Origin: an uncultured Solirubrobacterales bacterium
GTDB taxonomy: Bacteria; Actinomycetota; Thermoleophilia; Solirubrobacterales; 70-9
Direction of reading: 5' to 3'
Length of the DNA: 64,000 bases
NCBI GenBank assembly: GCA_963820665.1
Contig: CAWGAL010000002.1
Location: forward strand, 8,598-72,597
Of this stretch, positions 9,656 through 29,380 are shown piece by piece. The position numbers and the translations under genes were made by a program. The notes under the pieces are model-generated. The model had not been told where the DNA came from. It ran no database searches and saw nothing but the letters and a program-made list of their open reading frames with translations. Each line of letters opens with the position of its first letter. Position 1 is the first letter of the stretch.

Positions 9656-10540
9656 CTAGGGACAGCTGCGGAGCGTGTCGCGCCCCGCCCCGCCCTTGCA
9701 GCTATCGCTGTTACGACCTCCGTTGAGCAGGTCGTTGCCGCGCTGTCCACGGAGCACATCCCGCCCTGCCTTACCTCGGATCAGGTCACCTCCGCCGCCG
9801 CCGAGCAACCTGTCGCGACCCGGACCGCCGATCATCGTGTCGGCGCCGGTTCCGCCGACCACCCGGTCCACACCGATGTCAGCGCAGATCAGGTCGTTGC
9901 CGCCGCCGGCGAAGATTCGATCGTTGCCGGCAAACCCGCGAATGACGTCGGCACCCGCTGTGCCGACCAGCACGTCAGCACCCGCAGTGCCAGAGATCGT
10001 CGGGGTAGCGCAGCTGGCCCCCTTTGGCTTCTTCGGCTTCTTCCCGGTCGCCTTCTTGTTGATCACCGTGGTTTCGGTGTCCTGGTTGTTCGCTGCATTC
10101 GTGTCGTCGACACTGGCAAGTGAAGCGGTGTTCGAAACCGTTCCCGTCCTCTTCGCCTTGACGAGAATCGTGACGGTGGCGGTCGTGCCGGCGTTGACCT
10201 GGCCGAGGTTGCAGGTGACGTCGGCGCCTGTCCGCTGACAGCTGCCGGCCGTCGCCGATGACGAGACGTAGTCGACGTCCGCGGGCAGCGTGTCTGTGAC
10301 GACCACCGCCGAGGCGTCACTGGCTCCCTGGTTGCGCGTCGCGATCGTGTAGCTGAAGTTGTCACCCTGAACAGCCGGGTCAGCGCTATCGCTCTTGGTC
10401 AGGATGAGATCGGTCGGACCGACCGCTGCCGTCGCGCCGCCCGGGCCGACCATCATCAGGACAAGGGCGGCGAAGACCGTTCCTGCCAGGCCGACCATCC
10501 GAAGGCCGCCCAGGCGCCGCCTGCAAACGTCCGTGTTCAT
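9656..10540 (-). CDS. secreted DUF11-domain protein with C-terminal RTX (hemolysin-type Ca-binding) repeats
   Basis: 294-aa ORF with a signal/TM segment (LRMVGLAGTVFAALVLMMV). The DUF11 pattern is DLILTKSDSADPAVQGDNFSYTIATRNQGASDASAVVVTDTLPADVDYVS...NTASLASVDDTNAANNQDTETT. A Lys-rich linker KKATGKKPKKPKG follows, then GGxGxD nonapeptides (GTAGADVLVGTAGADVIRGFAGNDRIFAGGGNDL...). Strong SD (AAGGAGGA) before the ATG. Confidence 0.8.
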   Translation of the reverse strand: MNTDVCRRRLGGLRMVGLAGTVFAALVLMMVGPGGATAAVGPTDLILTKSDSADPAVQGDNFSYTIATRNQGASDASAVVVTDTLPADVDYVSSSATAGSCQRTGADVTCNLGQVNAGTTATVTILVKAKRTGTVSNTASLASVDDTNAANNQDTETTVINKKATGKKPKKPKGASCATPTISGTAGADVLVGTAGADVIRGFAGNDRIFAGGGNDLICADIGVDRVVGGTGADTMIGGPGRDRLLGGGGGDLIRGKAGRDVLRGQRGNDLLNGGRNSDSCKGGAGRDTLRSCP

Positions 10541-10751: not shown

Positions 10752-11060
10752 ATGCGTATCCCAACTCAAGCCGGCTTCATTCTCGTCGTTGCGCTGGTCG
10801 CGGTCGCAGTTGCCTGGGTCGCGTCCTCTGCGCCCGCTCAGGATCCGGCTAGCCCCGCGGAGAGCCAGTACACGGCTCCGATCCCTGCGGAGGCCGGCGA
10901 GTCAGGCTCGGACGAAGAGCCGACAGGCATGAGGAGCAACATCGGCTCGTTTCCGTTCACCGGCCTGGACCTTCTGATCCTGGGCGTAGTCACCTCGTTG
11001 GTGGCGCTGACGGGATTCCTGCTCCGCAGGCTGTCCGCGCCCCGCAGACCGGTCCGCTGA
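10752..11060 (+). CDS. small secreted acidic protein with LPXTG-like (FPFTG) sortase sorting signal; paralog of 23741-24072
   Basis: From ATG 10752 the translation reads MRIPTQAGFILVVALVAVAVAWVASSAPA / QDPASPAESQYTAPIPAEAGESGSDEEPTGMRSNIGS / FPFTG / LDLLILGVVTSLVALTGFLL / RRLSAPRRPVR. That is a signal peptide, a low-complexity acidic segment, the motif, a TM helix and a basic tail. The ORF-track start 10680 is also possible. Confidence 0.6.
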   Translation: MRIPTQAGFILVVALVAVAVAWVASSAPAQDPASPAESQYTAPIPAEAGESGSDEEPTGMRSNIGSFPFTGLDLLILGVVTSLVALTGFLLRRLSAPRRPVR

Positions 11061-19179: not shown

Positions 19180-20466
19180 TCATCTCTCTCTTCCCCCTCG
19201 ACTGTACGCCGAACCCGGTGCGCGAGTCGGCTCTGAAGGGTGAACAGCTCGATGAAGCCCGGGCTCGCGTGCTGGGAGAACTCGCCTCCGGACTCGCCGA
19301 ACGACGCCAGCGACTGGTCGTAGAGGGCGAACGGCGAGCTGCGGATCACGGGCGTGACCGAGCCCTTGTAGAGCTTCACGCGTCACCTCGCCCGTCACGA
19401 CCTCGTTGACCGAGTCCATGTAGGCGTCGATGTCGCTGCGCAGCGGCTCGAGCCAGAGGCCCGCGTAGGCGAGGTAGGCCCAGTGGTCCTCGAGCGCGCC
19501 CTTGAAGTTGTTCTGGTGGATCGTGCTGACGAGCTTCTCGAGGTCGCGGTGCGCCGCCATCAGGATGGCCGCGGCCGGGACCTCGTAGAGGTCGCGCACC
19601 TTGAGGCCGACGATCCGGTCCTCGATGTGGTCGACGATGCCGCAGCCGTGGCGGGCGCCGATCTCGGTGGCGCGGTCGATCAGCTCGACCAGCTCCATCG
19701 ACACACCGTCGAGGGCGATTGGCCGCCCTCGCTCGAACTCGACGCGTCACGAGCTGCGGCTCGTCTGGCGCGAGCCTCGGGGCGGGTGACCAGCTGGAAG
19801 ACGTCATCGGGCGGCGGTGCCGAGCAGGTCCTCGATCTCCTTGCCCTCCGACGAGCGCCCCCAGAGGTTGTCGTCGATCGAGTACGGCGAGACCTCGTTG
19901 CCGCCCTTCAGCGGGATGCCGTTGTCCCGCGCGTACTGGATCTCCTCGTCGCGGCCCATCCGCCAGTCGCGCACCGGCGCGAGCACCTTGAGCTCCGGGT
20001 CGAGCGTGGCGATCGTGGCCTCGAGGCGCACCTGGTCGTTGCCCTTCCCGGTGCACCCGTGGGCGATCGTGTCGCAGCCGTGCTCGCGCGCCACGTCGAC
20101 CGCCTTGGTCGCGATCAGCGGCCGCGCGAGCGCGGTGAACAGCGGGTAGCCGCCCGCCGTAGAGCGCGTTGGCCTTGATCGCCGGCAGCACGTAGTCCTC
20201 GGCGAACTCCTCGCGGGCGTCGACGACCACGGTCTCGACCGCGCCGAGCGCCTTGGCCTTGTCGGTGACGGCGGTGTAGTCCTCGCCCGGCTGGCCCAGG
20301 TTGACGGTCAGGGTCACGATCTCGGCGCCGTAGTGCTCGGCGATCCACTTCACCATCACGCTCGTGTCGAGCCCGCCGGAGTAGAGCAGCAGGACGCGCC
20401 CGATCTCGTCCGGGTCGACCTCGAAGGAGGCGATGCGGGGGCTGTCGGGGGCCGGGTCGGTCACGT
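19180..20466 (-). pseudogene. argG: argininosuccinate synthase, frame-disrupted in this sequence (at least 3 frame changes)
   Basis: Pieces lie in different frames: 19376-20485 (RVLLLYSGGLDTSVMVKWI...IKANALYGG), 19804-20094 ([22 protein letters not shown]...[11 protein letters not shown]), 19180-19704 (ELIDRATEIGARHGCGIVDHIEDRIVGLKVRDLYEVPAA) and 18993-19379 (KLYKGSVTPVIRSSPFALYD). Together they form a complete ArgG. Confidence 0.85.
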
Positions 20467-20556
20467 TGGCGGAGCAGTTTCGCACGGGCGGCGACCAGCG
20501 AGCTTCGCGGCCCGGGCCTTGAGCGCGCGCTGGGGCGCCCCTGCCAGAATGCGCCC

Positions 20557-21247
20557 ATGCGCCGCTTCGCCCGCATCCTCTCCACCGCCCTGATCACCGC
20601 CGGCATGGTGGTCTTCGCCGATGTCGCGGTGACGCTGCTGTGGCAGGAGCCCGTCTCGGCCGCGTACGGAAACCTCCAGCAGGGCAAGGCCGAGGACGAC
20701 CTGGCGGACCTCGAGACCGACTTCGCGGCCGAGACCGAGGCGCTCGGCGAGATCGCCGCGGAGAAGCGAACCAGGGTGCTCGCAAAGCTGTTCGAGCGCG
20801 AGATCTCGCAGGGCGACGCGATCGGCCGCATCCGGATCCCGAGCATCGGCCTCGACACCGTGCTGATGAACGGCACCGACACGGCCACCCTTCAGAAGGG
20901 GCCCGGCCGCTTCCCGCAAACACCCCTCCCCGGGCTTGGACGGCACCACGGGGATCGCCGGCCACCGCACCACGTACGCCGCCCCGTTTCGGAAGATCGA
21001 CCAGATCGACGACGGTGAGGAGATCCAGGTCAAGCTCCCCTACGGGACCTTCAACTACGAGGTCGAAGGCCACGAGATCGTCGACCCGAGCGACGTCGAG
21101 GTCGTGTTCCCCGTCGGCTACGAGAGGGTCGTCCTGACCGCGTGCCACCCGCTGCACAGCGCGGCGCAGCGCTACGTCGTCTCTGCCCGCCTGACCGACA
21201 TCGAGACTTTCGGCGGCGCCGGCGAGGACCGCTGGCCCGCTCCCTGA
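20557..21247 (+). pseudogene. sortase (class D/E-like transpeptidase), one frame change near 20930
   Basis: The N-terminal TM anchor (ILSTALITAGMVVFADVAV) and IGRIRIPSIGLDTVLMNGT are in ORF 20557-21018. GIAGHRTTYAAPF (His), VVLTACHP (catalytic Cys, TLxTC-like) and RYVVSARL (Arg) are in ORF 20936-21247. Confidence 0.8.
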
Positions 21248-21253
21248 CGCCCG

Positions 21254-22171
21254 CTAGCGCGGCGTGAAGCTGTCGAGCGTCGCCTCGGCCTCGCGCACCT
21301 GACGGCGCGAGGCGTTCCCCTCCACCCGCTTAAGGAGCAAGTAGGACACTCCCCCTCGCGAGAAGAAAGTCGCGATCTCCTCGCCGCCGTCGTAGCTGAT
21401 TCGGGCGCGAGCCACCGCCCTGCCCTTGAACTTCGCCGGGTAGAGGGGGCCCACCACCGCACCGTCGTGGCGCTGTTCGAGGAAGAGCTCCGAGGTATCG
21501 GCGAACTCGATCGGCGAGAGATCGCTCGGGCCGAAGTAGACGGTCACCGCGGCGCTTTGGTCGGGCGCCTCGATCTCCGCCTTCTCGTCGTCTGAGTCGA
21601 CGGCCTCCCAGCCCGCCGGAACCCCGATCGAGAAGACGTCGGCGAACGTGCGGCGCTCGAGCTCGACGCCGTTCACCGTCAGCTTCTTCGGCGGAGCCTG
21701 CGGCTCCGGCTTGACGGGGGCGGGGTCTGGTTCGACGGCCGCGCTCGGAGCCGGATCCGGGTCGGGAGCCGGCTCGTCGTCATCGGATCCGAGCACGGCG
21801 GCGCCCACCACCAAGGCCGCGGCGCAGATTCCCAGCACCGCGAGCGGGACGCCGATGCGACGGCGCGCGGAGGGCTTGGATGGACGCTCGGCGGTGCGGC
21901 GGGCCTGCTCGAAGTCGGCGGCCTTGACAGCCGCGTACGGCTTCCCCGCCGTGGCGGGCGGAATCACGCTGCCCGCCGCGTCCATGTCGCCCGCCTCCGC
22001 CATCCGGTAGCCGGTGCTCTTTCCGCAGCCCTCGCAGCTGATGCGGAGCCTGCCGCTACCGGCCTGGTCGGAGCGTTCGACGTTGAAACCCGCGTCGCAG
22101 GCCTCGTGCTCAGCGAGGAACTGCGCGATGCTCGGCGCGCCCCCGCCCTTGAATCTCTCCCCAGGCGCCAT
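21254..22171 (-). CDS. membrane protein with cytoplasmic Cys/His zinc-ribbon-like N-terminus and extracytoplasmic domain
   Basis: 305-aa ORF containing FLAEHEACDAG...RISCEGCGKS (H-x2-C ... C-x2-C), one TM helix (IGVPLAVLGICAAALVVGAAVLG), a Pro/Asp-rich linker and a C-terminal domain of about 150 aa. Last gene of the operon containing the priming transferase. Confidence 0.55.
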   Translation of the reverse strand: MAPGERFKGGGAPSIAQFLAEHEACDAGFNVERSDQAGSGRLRISCEGCGKSTGYRMAEAGDMDAAGSVIPPATAGKPYAAVKAADFEQARRTAERPSKPSARRRIGVPLAVLGICAAALVVGAAVLGSDDDEPAPDPDPAPSAAVEPDPAPVKPEPQAPPKKLTVNGVELERRTFADVFSIGVPAGWEAVDSDDEKAEIEAPDQSAAVTVYFGPSDLSPIEFADTSELFLEQRHDGAVVGPLYPAKFKGRAVARARISYDGGEEIATFFSRGGVSYLLLKRVEGNASRRQVREAEATLDSFTPR

Positions 22172-23715
22172 CAGCGAGGCGAAAGCTATCCGCTAGGTGA
22201 CTTCCACGCTCGCGGGGACCTGCTCCTCGGCCGCGGGCTCGGACGGCGACGATGAAGCGCTCGTCGGGCCGGTTGATCGGCTCGGGGACGACGACGGTGC
22301 TGAGCGTCTCGAGCATGATCAGCAGGTCGAACAGCACCGAGCGGCGCTTCAGGTAGAAGAGGTCGTGGCAGAGCTTCCAGGCGCTGCCGATGTGGCTGCC
22401 GGAGTAGCCGCAGCGCACCTGAGCCCAGCCCGTGATGCCGGGCTTGACCAGATGCCGGCGGTCGTAGTAGGAGAAGCGGCTCTCCAGGTCGATCACCAGG
22501 CTCGGCTGCTCAGGCCGGGGGCCCACGAGGCTCATCTGCCCCTTCAAGACCAGCCAGAGCTGCGGCAGCTCGTCGATGTGCGTGCGGCGCAGGAAGCGCC
22601 CGACCAGGGTGATTCGGTCGTCCTCGTTGCCGGTCCACATCGGGCCGTCGTCGTGAACGCGCATCGTCCGCAGCTTCACGAGGTCGATCGCCTGCCCGCC
22701 CTCGCCCATCCGCGGCTGGCGGTGCAGCACCGGCCCGCGGTCGTTCAGCTTGATCGCAAGCGCCGCCACGATCACGAGGGGGGCCGCGATGATCGCCGCG
22801 ATCGTGCCGAGCGTGAGGTCCAGGATTCGCTTGGAGATCGGCCAGCTCGCGCGGTAGCGCGGATGCAGCAGGTACTGGAACCAGGCCGAGGTCGTGGTGC
22901 CGAGCGGGACGTGGCCGAAGAGCTCCTCGTAGAGCTGCCCGGCTTCGATCATCGATACGGGCAGGTCCAGGCAGGCGTCGGCGACCAGCTCGAAGACTTC
23001 GAGCCTCGAAACGCCGGCGGACTGGAACTGCCCCTCGGATTGCTCCGTCGAGGCCTGGCTCAGAGGGCCGAGCACGAGGAGCTCGACTCCGTTGTCGGAT
23101 GATCGTCCCGCGCAACTCGGTGAGCGAGCCGAGACAGCGGATGCCCGCCACCTCGTCCTCGACGCAGGCGTGCTCGGGATCGATGCAGCCGACGACGCGG
23201 TAGCCGTGCACGCCGACCGCCTCGAGCTCGGCCTCGAGGCCGCGCGCGAACTCGTGCGAGCCGATCACCGCGACCTGCACCTCCCGCCCGCGCCGGAAGT
23301 TGTAGGTGACCATGGCGCCCAGTGCCGTCACGACCCAGGCGCCGATCACCGGCGCGACCATCTCGGAGGCCGTGATGTCGCTGACCGAGTAGCCGTCCCA
23401 GGCGCTGATGGCGATCGCCAACCCAGCGCCGAGGGGCGCGGCCGCTGCGTAGAGGGTCGCCGATGCGAACGGGATCAGGTGCAGCGGGTACTGGGGCCTG
23501 CGCAGCACCATCGAGACGCCGAACGCCGACCCGAAGACCAGCAGGGCCTGCCACTCGGACTCGAGGTGCGCGTAGACGATCGCCGCAGCCGCGAGGGCCG
23601 GAGCGATCCGCAGCGTCACCAGCTCGACCAGGCGCTGAGCGGTCAGACCGCTCAGGTGCGGGAACGAGCGGCGCGGCGGAGTCTCACGAGCGAGATGCCT
23701 CTGCCCGTCGCTCAT
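22110..23715 (-). pseudogene. polyprenyl-phosphate glycosyl-1-phosphate (priming) sugar transferase, WbaP/EpsB-like; one frame change near 23080
   Basis: The N-terminal polytopic part and the Rossmann-like VAVIGSHEFARGLEAEL are in ORF 22510-23715. The catalytic bacterial sugar transferase domain is in ORF 22110-23075 ([58 protein letters not shown]). Confidence 0.8.
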
Positions 23716-23740
23716 CTCAATGTCCCAGTGGGGAGCCCTG

Positions 23741-24072
23741 CTAGGAGCTGGGATCCCGCGGCATGGACAGCCTGCGCAGCGCGAACCCGGTGCCCGTGAG
23801 CATCAGTGCAACCGCGGCGATGATCAGCAGGTCCATTCCGGTGAACGGAAGGGAGCCGATCGACGCGCTGAGGCCGCTTTCCTCGCTGCCGGTTGCCGGC
23901 CGCCGGCACCGGAGGCGCCGCCACCGGCGGTGCCCTCTTCGATGTTCGGCGGGTTGTACTGCGCCGACGACGGATCGTCGGTCTGAGCGACTGCCATGGG
24001 TGCAGCTGCGAAAGCCCCCACAAGGGCAACCGCCACGATCATGCCAAAACGGCTGAGCTTTGTCTTACGCAT
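23741..24072 (-). pseudogene. small secreted acidic protein with LPFTG sortase sorting signal (needs one frame change); paralog of 10752-11060
   Basis: ATG 24072 with a GAAGGA SD. Frame 1 reads MRKTKLSRFGMIVAVALVGAFAAAPMAVA/QTDDPSSAQYNPPNIEEGTAGGGASGAGG. After a frame change at approx 23895-23925 it continues PATGSEESGLSASIGS-LPFTG-MDLLIIAAVALMLTGTGFAL-RRLSMPRDPSS-stop (complement of 23741-23743). The ORF track shows only the 82-aa frame-1 product. The gene lies 25 nt upstream of the priming transferase start. Confidence 0.55.
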
Positions 24073-24342
24073 TTGGTTTCAATCCTTCTCTAAGTTCGGG
24101 GGCTATTCGTTCGGTACTTCATGTGGTTCGGATCACACTGGTACGGAACATCGTCAGGCAAGTGCTCAGCCTTGAGCGCAGCATACTACCTAATTTTGGA
24201 GAGCTGGGCCCCTCGCCCAACTTCCGCACTCAAACATCACCCTTGCCCGTCGCGGGCATGATAGTCGGTCGTAATCCCGGAAAAACAACCGCCTGTTTCG
24301 GGTAATCATCGCGATTCCTCACGCCTGGAGATACGGATGCAC

Positions 24343-26323
24343 TCACTTCTGGGCGGCGATTTCGTCCGCCAGCGTCGGCGATCTCCTCCCCGCGCGGGTT
24401 CAGTTCGCGGGCTCGCTGCAAGGCGCGGTTCGCCCCCGCGGATCGCTCGCCGCGAGCACCTGGGCGCGGATGTAGTACAGCGTCCATTCCTCGGGCTGGC
24501 GGTCCTCGGCCTCGTCGAGCGCGGCCAGGGCACGTGCGCGATCCCCGTTGCGGTCGGCGATCACCGCCTCGGCCGCGAGGGCGCGCTCGCTGAACGGGTT
24601 CAGGTCGGCTGCGCGGTCGAGGTCCTCGTAGGCGCCCTCGGGGTCGGCGCCCCCGGTCCGGATTCCCTCGTTCGTGTAGCGCTCGCTGAAGAAGAACGGG
24701 AGCAGGCTCAGCGCCGCGACGACCGCGGCGCACGGCGAACCCGATTCGCAGACCGCGGCTCGGCCCCGGTCCCGGGTTGCGCAACGCCGGCGCGGCCGCG
24801 GCGCCGAGCACGAACGCCATCGGCAGCGTGATCACGGGATAGGACCAGAACCACTCCACCGAGGCGTGCACGAGCCAGTAGCCGGCGACCGCCAGCGCCC
24901 CGGCGACCAGCGCAGCCGCCTGCGGCCCTCGCCTGCGCGATCGAAGCGCCGCCCAGGTCCCCGCCACGACGAAGACGCCGAACAAGAGCAGCCCCGGCAC
25001 CCCGAGCTCGGAGGCCATCAGCATGATCACGCTGTGCGGGTCCTCGGGTTGCAGCGTGGACTCCTTGTCGCGCAGGTAGCTGAACCGCCATCCGCCGGCC
25101 CCGACGCCGCCAGCCGGGTTCGCGGCGAGGTCGTCGATGGCGACGCGCCAGAAGTCGCCGCGGTCGGAGGACAGGTCGAGGCCGAAGCGGCTGCCCTTCG
25201 AGCTCAGGTCGGGGGTGCCCGCGGTGAGCTCGTCCGTCTGGTTGTCGATGAACTCGCGCGGTCCCCCGCCCGAGGCGACCACGGCGATCGTGCCGGCCAC
25301 CACGACCACCGCGGAAGACGCCGGCGAGCACGCGGCCCAGCAGCCGCCCGCGCCGCTCGGAGAGCTCGATCAGCGGGTCCCGCCAGGCTGCGAACGCTCC
25401 GATCACGGCCGAGACGGCGCTGGTGATGGCGATCGCCGCGGCGGCCGAGCGCAGCGGGTCGAGCGATGCCGCGGTGTTGCCGCCCTCGGTCTGGAAGACG
25501 TCGAGCAGCCACGGCAGCGCGGGCAGCACCGGCAGCACCGCCAGAGCGAGCCAGCCGAGGATGCGAAGCCGCTCGGGATGGGCTGCGACGAGCACGGCGA
25601 CGCCGGCCGCGAGGGCGAAGACCGAGGTCCGGCTCTGCGAGAGCACCGCCAGCTCGATCGCGAGCGTCGCCGAGCCCACCAGGAGCCCGCGAAGCCGCCA
25701 GTCCAGCCCGTCGCGCGCCGCCGCCAGGACGACCATCGGGAACATCGCCATCAGGAAGAAGCCGGCCACGGCGTTGCGGTAGCCGACGGGATAGCGAAGC
25801 GTGGCGTCGATCTCGAGCAGCTCGGTGGAGTTGTCGCTGACGGCGAGCGCGATCAGGGTGGCGACGCCGACGAGCGCCCCGGCCACCGCCAGCGGCGCGA
25901 GCGCGAGCAGCACCCTTGGCCCGAGCAGCGAGCAGAGCCAGAGGCCGAGCACGAACGCGACCGCGTAGGCGAGCACCCGCTGGGCGTCCTCGATCGCGAT
26001 GTCGGGAGCGGGTGACCAGGTCGCCGAGATGAGGGTGAGCAGCGCGATTCCCCCAGCAGCGCGACGAGGCAGACGAGCGCTGGGCCCCGGAGGCGAGCCG
26101 GCAACGGAGCGAACAGCAGCAGGGCGACGAGCAGGCCGAGCAGCCCGATCGTCCCGGGCAGGAGCGTGACCCCGAAGTAGGCACCCCGCTCCCAGGCGAA
26201 CCATGCGATCAGGGCCGCGATCAGGCCCAGGGGGAGCAGCGCAGCGGCCAACGAAGGGGGCCCCGCTGCCGCCGGAGTCGCGGGCGTTCGCGAGGTCTCC
26301 ACGCCGGGGCCGGGGTCAACCAT
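24343..26323 (-). pseudogene. O-antigen ligase/Wzy-like polytopic membrane protein fused to C-terminal TPR-like repeats; several frame changes
   Basis: Start ATG 26323 (MVDPGPGVETS.., the tail of ORF 25853-27106). TM-rich pieces lie in ORFs 24708-26204 and 25204-26184. The Wzy_C-like region is GGWRFSYLRDKESTLQPEDPHSVIMLMASELGVPGLLLFG (ORF 24230-25309). The TPR-like part reads EGAYEDLDRAADLNPFSERALAAEAVIADRNGDRARALAALDEAEDRQPEEW..RALQRARELNPRGEEIADALADEIAAQK-stop. The 3' end at 24343 depends on accepting the last frame change. Confidence 0.65.
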
Positions 26324-26398
26324 CGGCGTGCACACCCACCATGTAACGCAAGCTATCGGGGTCTGACTGTCAGAATGGCGGCCCGCCGGATTTTCCCG

Positions 26399-27930
26399 AT
26401 GGCCCAGACCCCGACTAAAAGCGCAGAGTGGCTCGAGTCCCCTGCGGAGGAGGAGGGTCTTCGACGCTACGTCGAGACGATCCGCGAGCGCCTGCCTCTG
26501 GTGGGGGTCGCGGTGGCTGTGACGACGCTGGTGGCGATCCTCTACGTGCTCACCGCGCCGAAGACCTATGAGGCGCGCGCCGACCTGCTCGTCACGCCGG
26601 TCTCCGGCGACGACCCCGTCGCCCGCAGCCTGCCGGTGATCGTCGAGTCCGTCGACCCGACGCGCGACGTCGAGACCGCCTCGCAGTTCGTGACCAACAT
26701 CGATGTCGCGGCGAAGGGTCGCCGAGGACGGGGATTCGGAGCCTCCTCGCGACCTGCTCGACAAGGTCTCGGCGGAGCCGGTCGCCTCGAGCAACATCGT
26801 CGCGATCACGGCCGAGGGCGGATTCGCCTGAGGCGGCCCGCGACCTCGCCAACGACTTCGCCGAGGCCACCGTCGAGGACCGGACCGACGCAGATCCACG
26901 AGTCGATCGAGGTCCTGCTGCCCCCCCTCGAGGCGCAGCTCGAGCACAGCCGACCAGACGTGGTTCGGGAGGAGCTCGGCAGCGACGTGGCGCGCTGCAG
27001 CGCCCTGCTCGTCGCCCCCGCCCCCGACCTCCGCGTCGAGACGAAGGCCGACCTTCCAACCTCGCAGGCCTCGCCCCAGGCCGGTGCTGAGCATCGTCGG
27101 CGGCATGCTCGCCGGGCTGGTGCTCGGGATCGCCGGCGCCTTCGCCGCGCAGAACCTCGACCCGCGGCTCCGCCGCGAGACGCAGCTTCGCCGCCTCTAC
27201 CGGCTCCCGATCCTGGCCCGCATCCCGAAGGAGACCGGGAGCCCGGCCACGCTCCGCTCGGGCCCGACCGGCTCTCGCGCGTCGGCGCCGAGGCCTACCG
27301 GACCCTGCGCTCGACCCTCGAAGCGTCGCGCCGCGGCGACAGGGCTCGCGGGTGATCCTGGTCACCGGCCCCTCGCCCTCGGAGGGCAAGAGCACGACCG
27401 CCGTCAACCTCGCCTCTTCGCTCGCGCTCTCGGGCAAGCGCGTGATCCTGATCGAGGCGGACCTGCGGCGCCCGGCCCTCGCCGAGGCGCTTGACGCCCA
27501 GCCGACAAGGGCGGCGTGGTCAGCGTGCTGCTCGGGGAGACCAACCTCGAGGACGCGCTCACCGTCCCGCCGGCCTTCGGCGAGAACCTGGAGTGCCTGC
27601 TGGCCGACAACGAGACGACGGCTGGATCGTCGAGCTGTTCTCGATTCCGCCGCGCGGACGATGATCGAGGACGCGCGCCACCTCGCCGACTACGTGATCA
27701 TCGACAGCCCGCCGCTGAACGAGGTCGTCGACGCGATGCCGCTCGCGCGCCAGGCCGACGACGTGCTGATCGTCGTCCGGCTCGGCAAGACCCGCCTGCA
27801 GCGGATCGGGCAGCTCGGCGAGCTGCTGGCCGAGAACGGCGTTCGCCCCGTCGGGTTCGCCGTCGTCGGCGTCCCCCGGCCCGGCAGAGGCGAGTACCAC
27901 TACTACCAGAGCGGGCAACGAGGCGTTAAC
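26399..27930 (+). pseudogene. polysaccharide co-polymerase (Wzz domain) fused to BY tyrosine autokinase (Wzc/EpsG-like); at least 4 frame changes
   Basis: Wzz-type N-terminus with a TM helix (LPLVGVAVAVTTLVAILYVL) and a second TM (LSIVGGMLAGLVLGIAGAFAA). Walker A VTGPSPSEGKSTTAVNLA, A' VILIEADLRRP, Walker B DYVIIDSPPLN, and a Tyr-rich end GEYHYYQ. The 3' end is approximate. Confidence 0.75.
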
Positions 27931-28082
27931 ACCCTGAAGAGAATCGGAATCAGCAGCGCTCTCTGTTCCGGGGGCTCCTGCCGAGAACGGTTGGCCCGGC
28001 TTCGCGGTGGTCGTCCAGGCTCGACGGGGAGCTGGCGTGGGCGGGCGCCTCCTGACGCTTGCCGCGGCGACGGTCGGGCGTC

Positions 28083-29380
28083 ATGGCGGGCTATGACCCA
28101 CGCGTCGCGATCGCGGTCGCCCTCTCGGCGGCCTTCGTGCTCGTCGCCTTCGCCGATCTCGCCATCGGGCTCGCGATCTTCGCTTTCCTCGGCTTCGTCG
28201 AGGTCGTGCCGGTCGTGTCCCGCGCTCAGCCCCACCAAGCTACTCGGGCTATTGCTGACTCTCTCGTGGTTCGCGGTCCTGACGACCGGGCGGGGAGCTC
28301 GGCTCGATTTCGTCGCGTGCATCCCATCGTGTCCACCGCACTGGGGTTGTTCTTGGGTGGGTCGCGTTGAGCACGCCCTGGGCGGAGGATCCCGCGGCCG
28401 CGCTGGCTCCACCTCCCGTTACGGCCTCAACCTGGTGCTGTTCGTGATCGTGTTTACGGCGGTCCGTACCGCGGGGGACCTCGGCCGTGTCCTGGTCGGC
28501 TTCATGCTCGGGGCGTCGGTTGCTGCCATCTTCGGGATCGCGTCCCCAGCCCCGGGGATCGCCGGCCGCCTGGGCAGCGTCGTGCTCGATCCTAACGAGG
28601 TCGCGGTGCTGGTCTCGGGTCGCCTGCTCGCCGTCGGGGTGGTCGCGCTCTACCGCAGCGCCCCGCTGGTTGATCCGGCCGCGGCCACCGGGGTCTGCGT
28701 GCGCCCGGTGTCTGGCTCACGGCGTCACGCGGCGGACTGATCGCGCTCACGGTCGCCCTCGTGCTCGCGATCTTCGTCGCGGGCCGCTGGCGCCCCCCGA
28801 TGGCGGTCGGCGCCGCCTGCTCGCCGCCGCCAGCGTCGTTTACTTCTCCGGGTTCGCCTCGGCCGACGTTCAGGAGCGGATCACCGAGCCGACTCAGCGG
28901 ACAGGCGCGCCTCCAGGAGGGCCGCACCACCATCTGGCAGGTGGCGTGGCGCTCGGTCGAGGCCAACCCCGCGGAGGGCCTCGGCGCCGGGAACTTCGCG
29001 GTCTCCTCCAAGCATTATCTGCTAGAGCCCGGCGCTCTCGCACGCTCCGACGAGATTATCGACGAGCCGAAGGTCGCCCACAACAGCTACCTCGGAGTCC
29101 TTGCCGAGCTCGGCATGGTCGGGTCTGCCTGTTCGTGCTGATCGTCGGGTTCTCGGTTGCCTCGATGCTGATCGCCGCGCGACCTTCGGCGCCCGGGCGA
29201 CACACGCATGCAGGGGGTCTCGCTCTGCGTGGCGGTCGCTATGCTCGGCCACCTCGCCGCGGGCTTCTTCGTCTCGGGTCAGTACGGCGGGACGCTGTGG
29301 CTGCTGATGCGGCTCGGCCCGGCGCTGCTGGCGATCGCCAAGTCCTCGGTCGCCGGGGCGCGACGACGGGCTGCAACCCT
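28083..29380 (+). pseudogene. second O-antigen ligase/polymerase (Wzy)-like membrane protein; several frame changes
   Basis: Starts MAGYDPRVAIAVALSAAFVLVAFADLAIGLAIFAFLGFVEVVP and has multiple TM segments. The Wzy_C-like loop is RTTIWQVAWRSVEANPAEGLGAGNFAV...KVAHNSYLGVLAELGMVG (ORF 28761-29141). The 3' end is uncertain. Confidence 0.6.

Follow-up and report, generated by a model that had tools for sequence, protein, structure and literature searches.

The gene considered here lies on the minus strand of the window, by which we mean the whole 64,000-nucleotide stretch analysed, between a gene encoding a Wzy_C membrane protein and one encoding a priming glycosyl-phosphotransferase. Its parts, its neighbours and a paralogue located farther away are given below, each with the evidence on which it was placed.

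24340 to 26204, minus strand: Wzy_C (O-antigen-ligase-like) membrane protein with C-terminal TPR; four 1-nt indels, 3' end approximate (PF04932 and TPR matches).
24083 to 24088, minus strand: Shine-Dalgarno-like GAAGGA, with the ATG at 24072 located 10 nt downstream (sequence reading).
23741 to 24072, minus strand: gene of the small LPFTG protein, about 110 codons, split into an 82-aa ORF and a tail in the adjacent frame (intact 107-108-aa orthologues, 95% identity).
23986 to 24072, minus strand: predicted Sec signal peptide MRKTKLSRFGMIVAVALVGAFAAAPMAVA, cleavage before Q (by inspection: basic n-region, hydrophobic core, AxA site).
23956 to 23976, minus strand: N-terminal mature motif DPSSAQY with the single conserved Tyr of the family (alignment and Tyr counts).
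23891 to 23906, minus strand: site of the frame break, a 16-nt linker CCGGCGGCCGGCAACC (in relatives 11 nt, L001 and L003, or 8 nt, L002).
23837 to 23851, minus strand: LPFTG pentapeptide (translation and family motif counts).
23777 to 23836, minus strand: hydrophobic segment MDLLIIAAVALMLTGTGFAL (translation and alignment).
23741 to 23776, minus strand: basic cytoplasmic tail RRLSMPRDPSS and stop codon (translation and alignment).
22110 to 23715, minus strand: priming polyprenyl-phosphate glycosyl-phosphotransferase, Bac_transf, about 507 aa, broken by a +1 at 23095 (profile matches).
21254 to 22171, minus strand: 305-aa bitopic membrane protein, intact in the window, between the transferase and the sortase (structure model and profile work).
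20557 to 21247, plus strand: sortase (229 aa in relatives), its frame shifted by +1 at about 20934, ahead of the codons for the catalytic His, Cys and Arg (profile matches and motif reading).
10752 to 11060, plus strand: intact paralogue of the small protein, 102 aa, FPFTG variant, not adjoining any transferase (translation and alignment).

Minus-strand translation reproduced both reading frames as they had first been described. From the ATG at 24072, frame 1 reads MRKTKLSRFGMIVAVALVGAFAAAPMAVAQTDDPSSAQYNPPNIEEGTAGGGASGAGG, then RQPAARK and onward to a stop at 23824, yielding an 82-aa product that contains the signal peptide and DPSSAQY (24072-23824). The adjacent frame reads PATGSEESGLSASIGSLPFTGMDLLIIAAVALMLTGTGFALRRLSMPRDPSS up to the stop codon at 23743-23741, and contains IGS, LPFTG, the transmembrane (TM) segment and RRLSMPRDPSS. 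The interval 24072-23741 spans 332 nt, and either +1 nt or -2 nt is required to make it one ORF. The original observation thus holds; the position of the frame junction, first given as about 23920, has to be moved to the divergent 16-nt linker at 23906-23891. The GAAGGA sequence and the spacing to the priming glycosyltransferase had been read correctly, as the ATG of the latter (23715) begins 25 nt past the stop of the small gene. Scans for Rfam families, promoters and terminators around the small gene were negative. After removal of the signal peptide and cleavage between T and G of the pentapeptide, the mature product is predicted to have about 49 residues, including six D+E and zero K/R, which agrees with the acidic product first proposed, though not with the length of about 60 residues then attributed to it. 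This stalk is also rich in Gly, Ser, Ala and Pro, and contains one conserved Tyr, in DPSSAQY.

That the two frames belong to one gene is supported by relatives of the window. In a profile search, the joined protein matched intact 107-108-aa proteins with 95% identity over 100% of its length (E ~1e-51); P0001 (108 aa) and P0002 (107 aa) are each 95% identical across the full joined protein. The contigs carrying them, L001 and L002, share 95.3% and 91% DNA identity with the window, respectively, and the same gene order; a third relative, L003, is about 92% identical. The residue-by-residue resemblance to the intact paralogue at 10752-11060, noted from the outset, was also recovered (E = 8e-17, 43% identity), with both the N-terminal mature part and the tail matched. 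Such agreement greatly exceeds what chance would give. This paralogue stands alone; on one side lies the minus-strand gene of a secreted DUF11/RTX-repeat protein (9656-10540), on the other an ORF of 144 aa without family match. It is conserved in relatives (P0121, on the contig of P0001). Whether the tail frame is ever joined to the first in a single ORF had been set beforehand as a test of the original prediction; the homologues examined are single ORFs, a few splits in other MAGs excepted.

The linker of the small gene contains 5 nt that are private to the window, and its neighbours carry private changes of their own: +1 at 23095 in the transferase gene, +1 at about 20934 in the sortase gene, five separate +1 insertions in argG (20156, 19825, 19776, 19748 and 19380) and four 1-nt indels in the Wzy_C-TPR gene (25314, 24731, 24438 and 24375). 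Altogether, at least 12 lineage-specific frame-breaking indels, each polarised with two relatives, affect five adjacent genes (argG, sortase, transferase, small gene and Wzy_C-TPR); these claims cover the regions for which relatives or homologues were compared. The genes encoding LysR, a transglycosylase, ferritin and DnaE (11.6-18.5 kb) showed zero window-private frame-breaking indels upon comparison with relatives. Private frame-breaking indels of the three relatives in the same five genes are confined to variable 3' ends, and L003 has one more private single-base insertion, located in the transglycosylase gene. Homologues of the tyrosine-kinase/Wzz protein, the second Wzy and AsnB each match in more than one frame, which shows that the broken genes extend on to 26-29 kb and 42 kb of the window.

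On the scale of the window, frame-breaking single-base indels are dense across 19,180-29,100 and around 42,127, where they affect the genes for ArgG, the sortase, the transferase, Wzy_C-TPR, tyrosine-kinase/Wzz, the second Wzy and AsnB. The genes within 0-19 kb are clean, the 3.6-kb dnaE among them. Most of these indels are insertions located outside long homopolymers.

A genuine frameshift that had turned the small gene and its neighbours into pseudogenes in this strain would be compatible with a sequence that, as given, carries the break, and with five adjacent genes being broken. Nevertheless, window-specific substitutions at codon positions 1, 2 and 3 amount to 6/2/24 in the transferase gene and 2/1/8 in argG, both broken, versus 2/3/17 in the intact gene encoding LysR, such that the purifying pattern of the broken genes is that of intact ones. 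Five private 1-nt insertions in argG against only 11 private substitutions, mostly at third positions, is not a natural pattern for an arginine-biosynthesis gene still under purifying selection, and none of these indels occurs within the bodies of the genes compared in the three relatives. Given this excess of private indels and the purifying pattern, true pseudogenization is very unlikely and was rejected. Programmed -1 ribosomal frameshifting was rejected as well, and its probability is close to nil: a -1 slip after GGC GGC into CCG GCA ACC would indeed yield the joined protein, but this model is contradicted by the intact orthologues, with splits seen only in a few other long-read MAGs. Furthermore, the site has no canonical slippery heptamer, no slippery site is conserved, the linker in which it would lie is not conserved, and neighbouring genes carry eleven other indels.

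In view of the intact ORF of the relatives, of the many private indels of the window and of the third-position bias kept in the broken genes, we consider that the small gene is very probably a single gene split by an assembly or sequencing error. From the sequences compared, the break at 23906-23891 is almost certainly an indel error in a GC-rich linker of naturally variable length, and not biology. A biological meaning of the change of frame is not supported. Five adjacent genes share at least 12 private frame-breaking indels, of which this is one; it reads as an assembly error, and what it provides is only a warning that this stretch of the assembly is full of them. Four other loci (L014, L016, L026 and L057, at about position 10,000 in each), all of them from 'MFD' MAGs, likewise have a split or truncated small gene. 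Tail ORFs of genes split in other assemblies already stand in public protein collections, where the tail-only fragment P0129 (53 aa) appears as a separate protein.

Homologues with the architecture of the joined protein, whose absence had been named beforehand as decisive against it, are abundant. A profile search returned 265 of them, all single ORFs of about 100-120 aa. With an exhaustive profile search, 1007 representative clusters were obtained at E <= 1e-3, of which 173 remained at E <= 1e-10; among the clusters listed, nearly all are 95-125 aa long and match from end to end. The 73 genome loci examined belong to uncultured Solirubrobacterales, Gaiellales, Conexibacter, Thermoleophilaceae or less precisely labelled Actinomycetota. 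This is a large family, restricted to genomes of the Thermoleophilia type. It has no model in Pfam or NCBIfam, for which the joined protein and the paralogue gave noise matches only, and the literature yielded nothing related on LPFTG and nothing on sortases in connection with Thermoleophilia. What the small gene represents is a large family of miniature proteins with a sortase signal, unannotated and found in a class of soil Actinomycetota that is abundant but poorly studied.

Alignment of the family reveals a constant layout: a signal peptide ending in AxAQ, a short motif (in the window DPSSAQY), a variable linker in which Gly, Ser, Ala, Thr, Gln and acidic residues abound, then GLxSxIGS, LPFTG and (M/L)D, a helix with small residues (LTGTG), and LRRLSxPRGP. 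Among 144 representatives, 136 have LPFTG and six have LP[LIV]TG; Pro occupies the second position of the pentapeptide in 142 of the 144, and a conserved GS directly precedes it. In alignment A2, P34 and Y39 are invariant. A Tyr is found 6-23 residues past the signal peptide in 67 of 70 loci, and exactly one Tyr is present in 121 of 143 representatives. Since the 70 loci were chosen by their C-terminal pattern alone, the conservation of this Tyr is independent of how the sequences were found. Conservation is highest in the TM helix and the RRLSxPRGP tail, above that of the mature part, and all differences from the relatives in the hydrophobic segment and tail are synonymous, which indicates that selection acts on the protein and not on the DNA. 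Such conservation is unusual for a segment that a sortase discards and hints at an extra or different role.

Some loci depart from this layout. The loci L027-L037 (small gene at about 10,000-10,390) belong to a more distant subclade, where the conserved Tyr stands between two Cys, as in NCSTSDPTASQYCPP, a placement that suggests a putative disulfide loop around it; they keep the adjacent transferase, but encode no sortase within 10 kb. L022 (9806-10159) is a second copy, located on the contig of L015; it is devoid of the conserved Tyr, and no transferase, Wzy_C or sortase gene is found within 10 kb of it. This single case fits a link of the Tyr to glycan genes.

As originally proposed, all parts of a sorting signal for sortase are present in the tail: LPFTG, a TM segment and the basic RRLSMPRDPSS. 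Several features expected of a sortase substrate are present, namely a Sec signal peptide (AVA|Q, by inspection), LPFTG near the C-terminus followed by MDLLIIAAVALMLTGTGFAL and RRLSMPRDPSS, and a sortase encoded in the genome. A match to a curated LPXTG-anchor profile is the one feature that failed to appear: none was reported for the joined protein in NCBIfam or Pfam at E <= 10, with models that are short and whose weak matches the HMMER filters may drop. A regular-expression scan of 1.49 Mb of genome loci recovered only one other LPXTG-type tail, LPNTG in L065. The sortase orthologue matches PF04203 with 96 bits and passes the cut-off of TIGR01076 (73.8 versus 39.35), and its catalytic His, Cys and Arg motifs are visible downstream of the frame error of the window. 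It scores below every class-specific cut-off; class E is its best-scoring class, with 116.7 bits against the cut-off of 160 for model NF033747. Because every sequence feature of a substrate except the curated anchor profile is in place, the small protein is probably a miniature sortase substrate, and anchoring to the cell wall would be its most likely fate.

The organization of the neighbourhood associates this protein with polysaccharide genes. In close relatives, the order is Wzy_C-TPR (about 660 aa), the small gene, the Bac_transf transferase, one or two unannotated membrane proteins, the sortase (opposite strand) and argG. The transferase reaches 287 bits with TIGR03025 in relatives, with sub-threshold matches to TIGR03013, the PEP-CTERM-system transferase model. 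A Wzx/Wzy-type polysaccharide locus is located upstream and comprises genes for a Wzz/tyrosine-kinase protein, a flippase, GT4 enzymes, AsnB, a deacetylase, GHL15 and a second Wzy_C. The priming transferase is directly downstream and on the same strand in 55 of 72 loci, and directly upstream of a second small-gene copy in three further ones. The initial view of the small gene as the first of the priming-transferase operon is supported. A Wzy_C gene (with TPR) is found within 4 kb in 47 of 73 loci, usually directly upstream. A sortase is encoded within 10 kb in 32 of 73 loci, and two to three genes off throughout the closer clade. Even among members with 35-40% identity, which have no sortase within 10 kb, the transferase remains paired with the small gene, and in L028 the two form an isolated pair outside any polysaccharide cluster. 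The family is tied more tightly to the polysaccharide-priming enzyme than to anything else.

A few loci show other arrangements. In L017 (7408-10249), and also in L021 and L029, two copies of the small gene flank the priming transferase. In L076 (10001-12077, 72% identity), only two short ORFs separate the small gene from a sortase gene about 1 kb off, with no priming transferase between them; this gap is either a real deletion or a problem of contig assembly. The 305-aa protein encoded between the transferase and the sortase begins with a Cys-rich domain that contains CxxC; a TM helix and a Pro-rich linker connect it to an extracytoplasmic PsbP/Mog1-like domain. The latter was modelled confidently (pLDDT about 90), and Foldseek matched it to PsbP (E = 3e-8) and also to DcrB, Apa and LpqN. 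As modelled, this domain is a binding or scaffold fold, and not an enzyme.

The tightness of the pairing with the transferase, closer than that with the sortase and maintained in distant members that have no sortase nearby, together with the isolated pair of L028, would also be expected if the small protein were not, or not only, anchored to the wall. It could instead act as a single-pass membrane partner or regulator of the transferase, or its function could reside in the C-terminal peptide that remains after cleavage; the strong conservation of the TM helix and tail, with its synonymous differences, points the same way. We regard this as improbable, since the protein displays the canonical succession of signal peptide, LPXTG motif, TM segment and basic tail, its LPFTG is nearly invariant and preceded by a conserved GS, the sortase gene stays within two to three genes throughout the closer clade, and the N-terminal motif and Tyr are conserved outside the membrane.

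Taken together, we favour, with a probability of roughly 70%, the explanation that the locus encodes a single pre-protein of about 110 residues, split by an artefact in this assembly and probably anchored by sortase, with a role as glycan acceptor as a far less certain further step. The small protein would be exported via its Sec signal peptide, after which the sortase would cleave LPFT|G and link the mature peptide to peptidoglycan. The short wall-anchored peptide could then accept a glycan started by the priming transferase of the operon, and the Wzy_C-TPR enzyme, which is built like the PglL/WsfB O-oligosaccharyltransferases, would transfer this glycan, possibly to the conserved Tyr.

The acceptor part of this scheme, taken for itself, is tentative: a wall-anchored acceptor, possibly O-glycosylated on Tyr, is suggested by the tight operon link to the priming transferase, by a Wzy_C with a predicted external TPR, by the existence of a second Wzy_C and by the conserved Tyr. 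The TPR was placed outside the membrane, beside the catalytic loop, by a rough reading of hydropathy and the positive-inside rule, and the Wzy_C-TPR protein gave only weak TPR matches against PDB sequences. Wzy_C proteins include polymerases and ligases besides protein O-transferases; the second Wzy_C of the locus can serve as polymerase. The conserved gene order and the conserved Tyr make the proposal that the small protein is an anchor or acceptor rather than an adhesin more plausible.

More speculatively still, Thermoleophilia might attach a Wzx/Wzy polysaccharide to their wall through a dedicated protein bridge: the Wzy_C-TPR enzyme would O-glycosylate the Tyr of the 49-residue peptide with the glycan begun by the co-transcribed priming transferase, and sortase would then link the glycopeptide to peptidoglycan, without any LCP enzyme and with the unusually conserved TM helix and tail coupling both steps. 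No LCP gene (PF03816) was found among the genes called within 10 kb in L001, L002 and L076-L079. Should the small protein prove to accept a glycan, the way in which these bacteria attach surface polysaccharide to their wall would become apparent.

Several known systems share parts of this organization. The signal peptide, LPFTG, the hydrophobic segment of about 20 residues, the basic tail and a nearby sortase with His, Cys and Arg are those of classical LPXTG/sortase anchoring. The small protein differs by its mature part of only about 49 residues without a folded domain, by the fixation of X as Phe, by a TM helix and tail more conserved than the passenger and by the missing NCBIfam anchor match. 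Class E sortases, such as SrtE of Streptomyces and SrtA of Actinomyces oris, come from the same phylum and provide the best-scoring class for the sortase described here. Their sorting signals are LAXTG, with Ala at the second position (PMC11231552), whereas the small-protein family has Pro there, and the sortase remains below the class cut-off.

The PEP-CTERM/exosortase (EpsH) system of Gram-negative environmental bacteria associates signals made of a motif, a TM helix and a basic tail with proteins encoded alongside exopolysaccharide loci (PMC1569441). The C-terminal layout is alike, as is the kinship of the transferase, sub-threshold, to TIGR03013. Unlike in that system, the small protein has no PEP motif, which is absent from the alignment, and the processing enzyme is a sortase; the sole NCBIfam exosortase match was at E = 0.098, with 12 bits against a cut-off of 270.

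S-layer O-glycosylation loci, such as those of Paenibacillus alvei (WsfP/WsfB) and Geobacillus stearothermophilus (WsaP/WsaB), combine as here a WbaP-type priming transferase, a Wzy_C-TPR protein and AsnB. WsfB and PglL, both O-oligosaccharyltransferases, combine Wzy_C with a TPR at the C-terminus, WsfB of P. alvei works with the WbaP-like primer WsfP from a glycosylation locus that also encodes an AsnB homologue, and S-layer glycans of this type are tyrosine-linked (PMC2943079). The locus of the window contains both genes of this type, a Wzy_C with C-terminal TPR (PF04932 and TPR) and a WbaP-type transferase (Bac_transf, TIGR03025). It differs in that the candidate acceptor is a miniature protein with a sortase signal and not an S-layer protein.

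Finally, GspA of Actinomyces oris is a sortase-anchored protein to which LcpA, encoded next to it, adds a glycan; the housekeeping sortase SrtA then attaches it to peptidoglycan (PMC6381275). As in the GspA-LcpA-SrtA system, a protein with a sortase signal is encoded here beside its candidate glycosylation enzymes. The mature part of GspA has about 225 residues versus about 49 in the protein of the window, and its enzyme is an LCP phosphotransferase, while the linked genes here encode a priming transferase and a Wzy_C-TPR protein. If the small protein is indeed a glycan acceptor, GspA would no longer stand alone as a well-studied glycosylated substrate of a sortase, and a different enzyme system would be added to its own.
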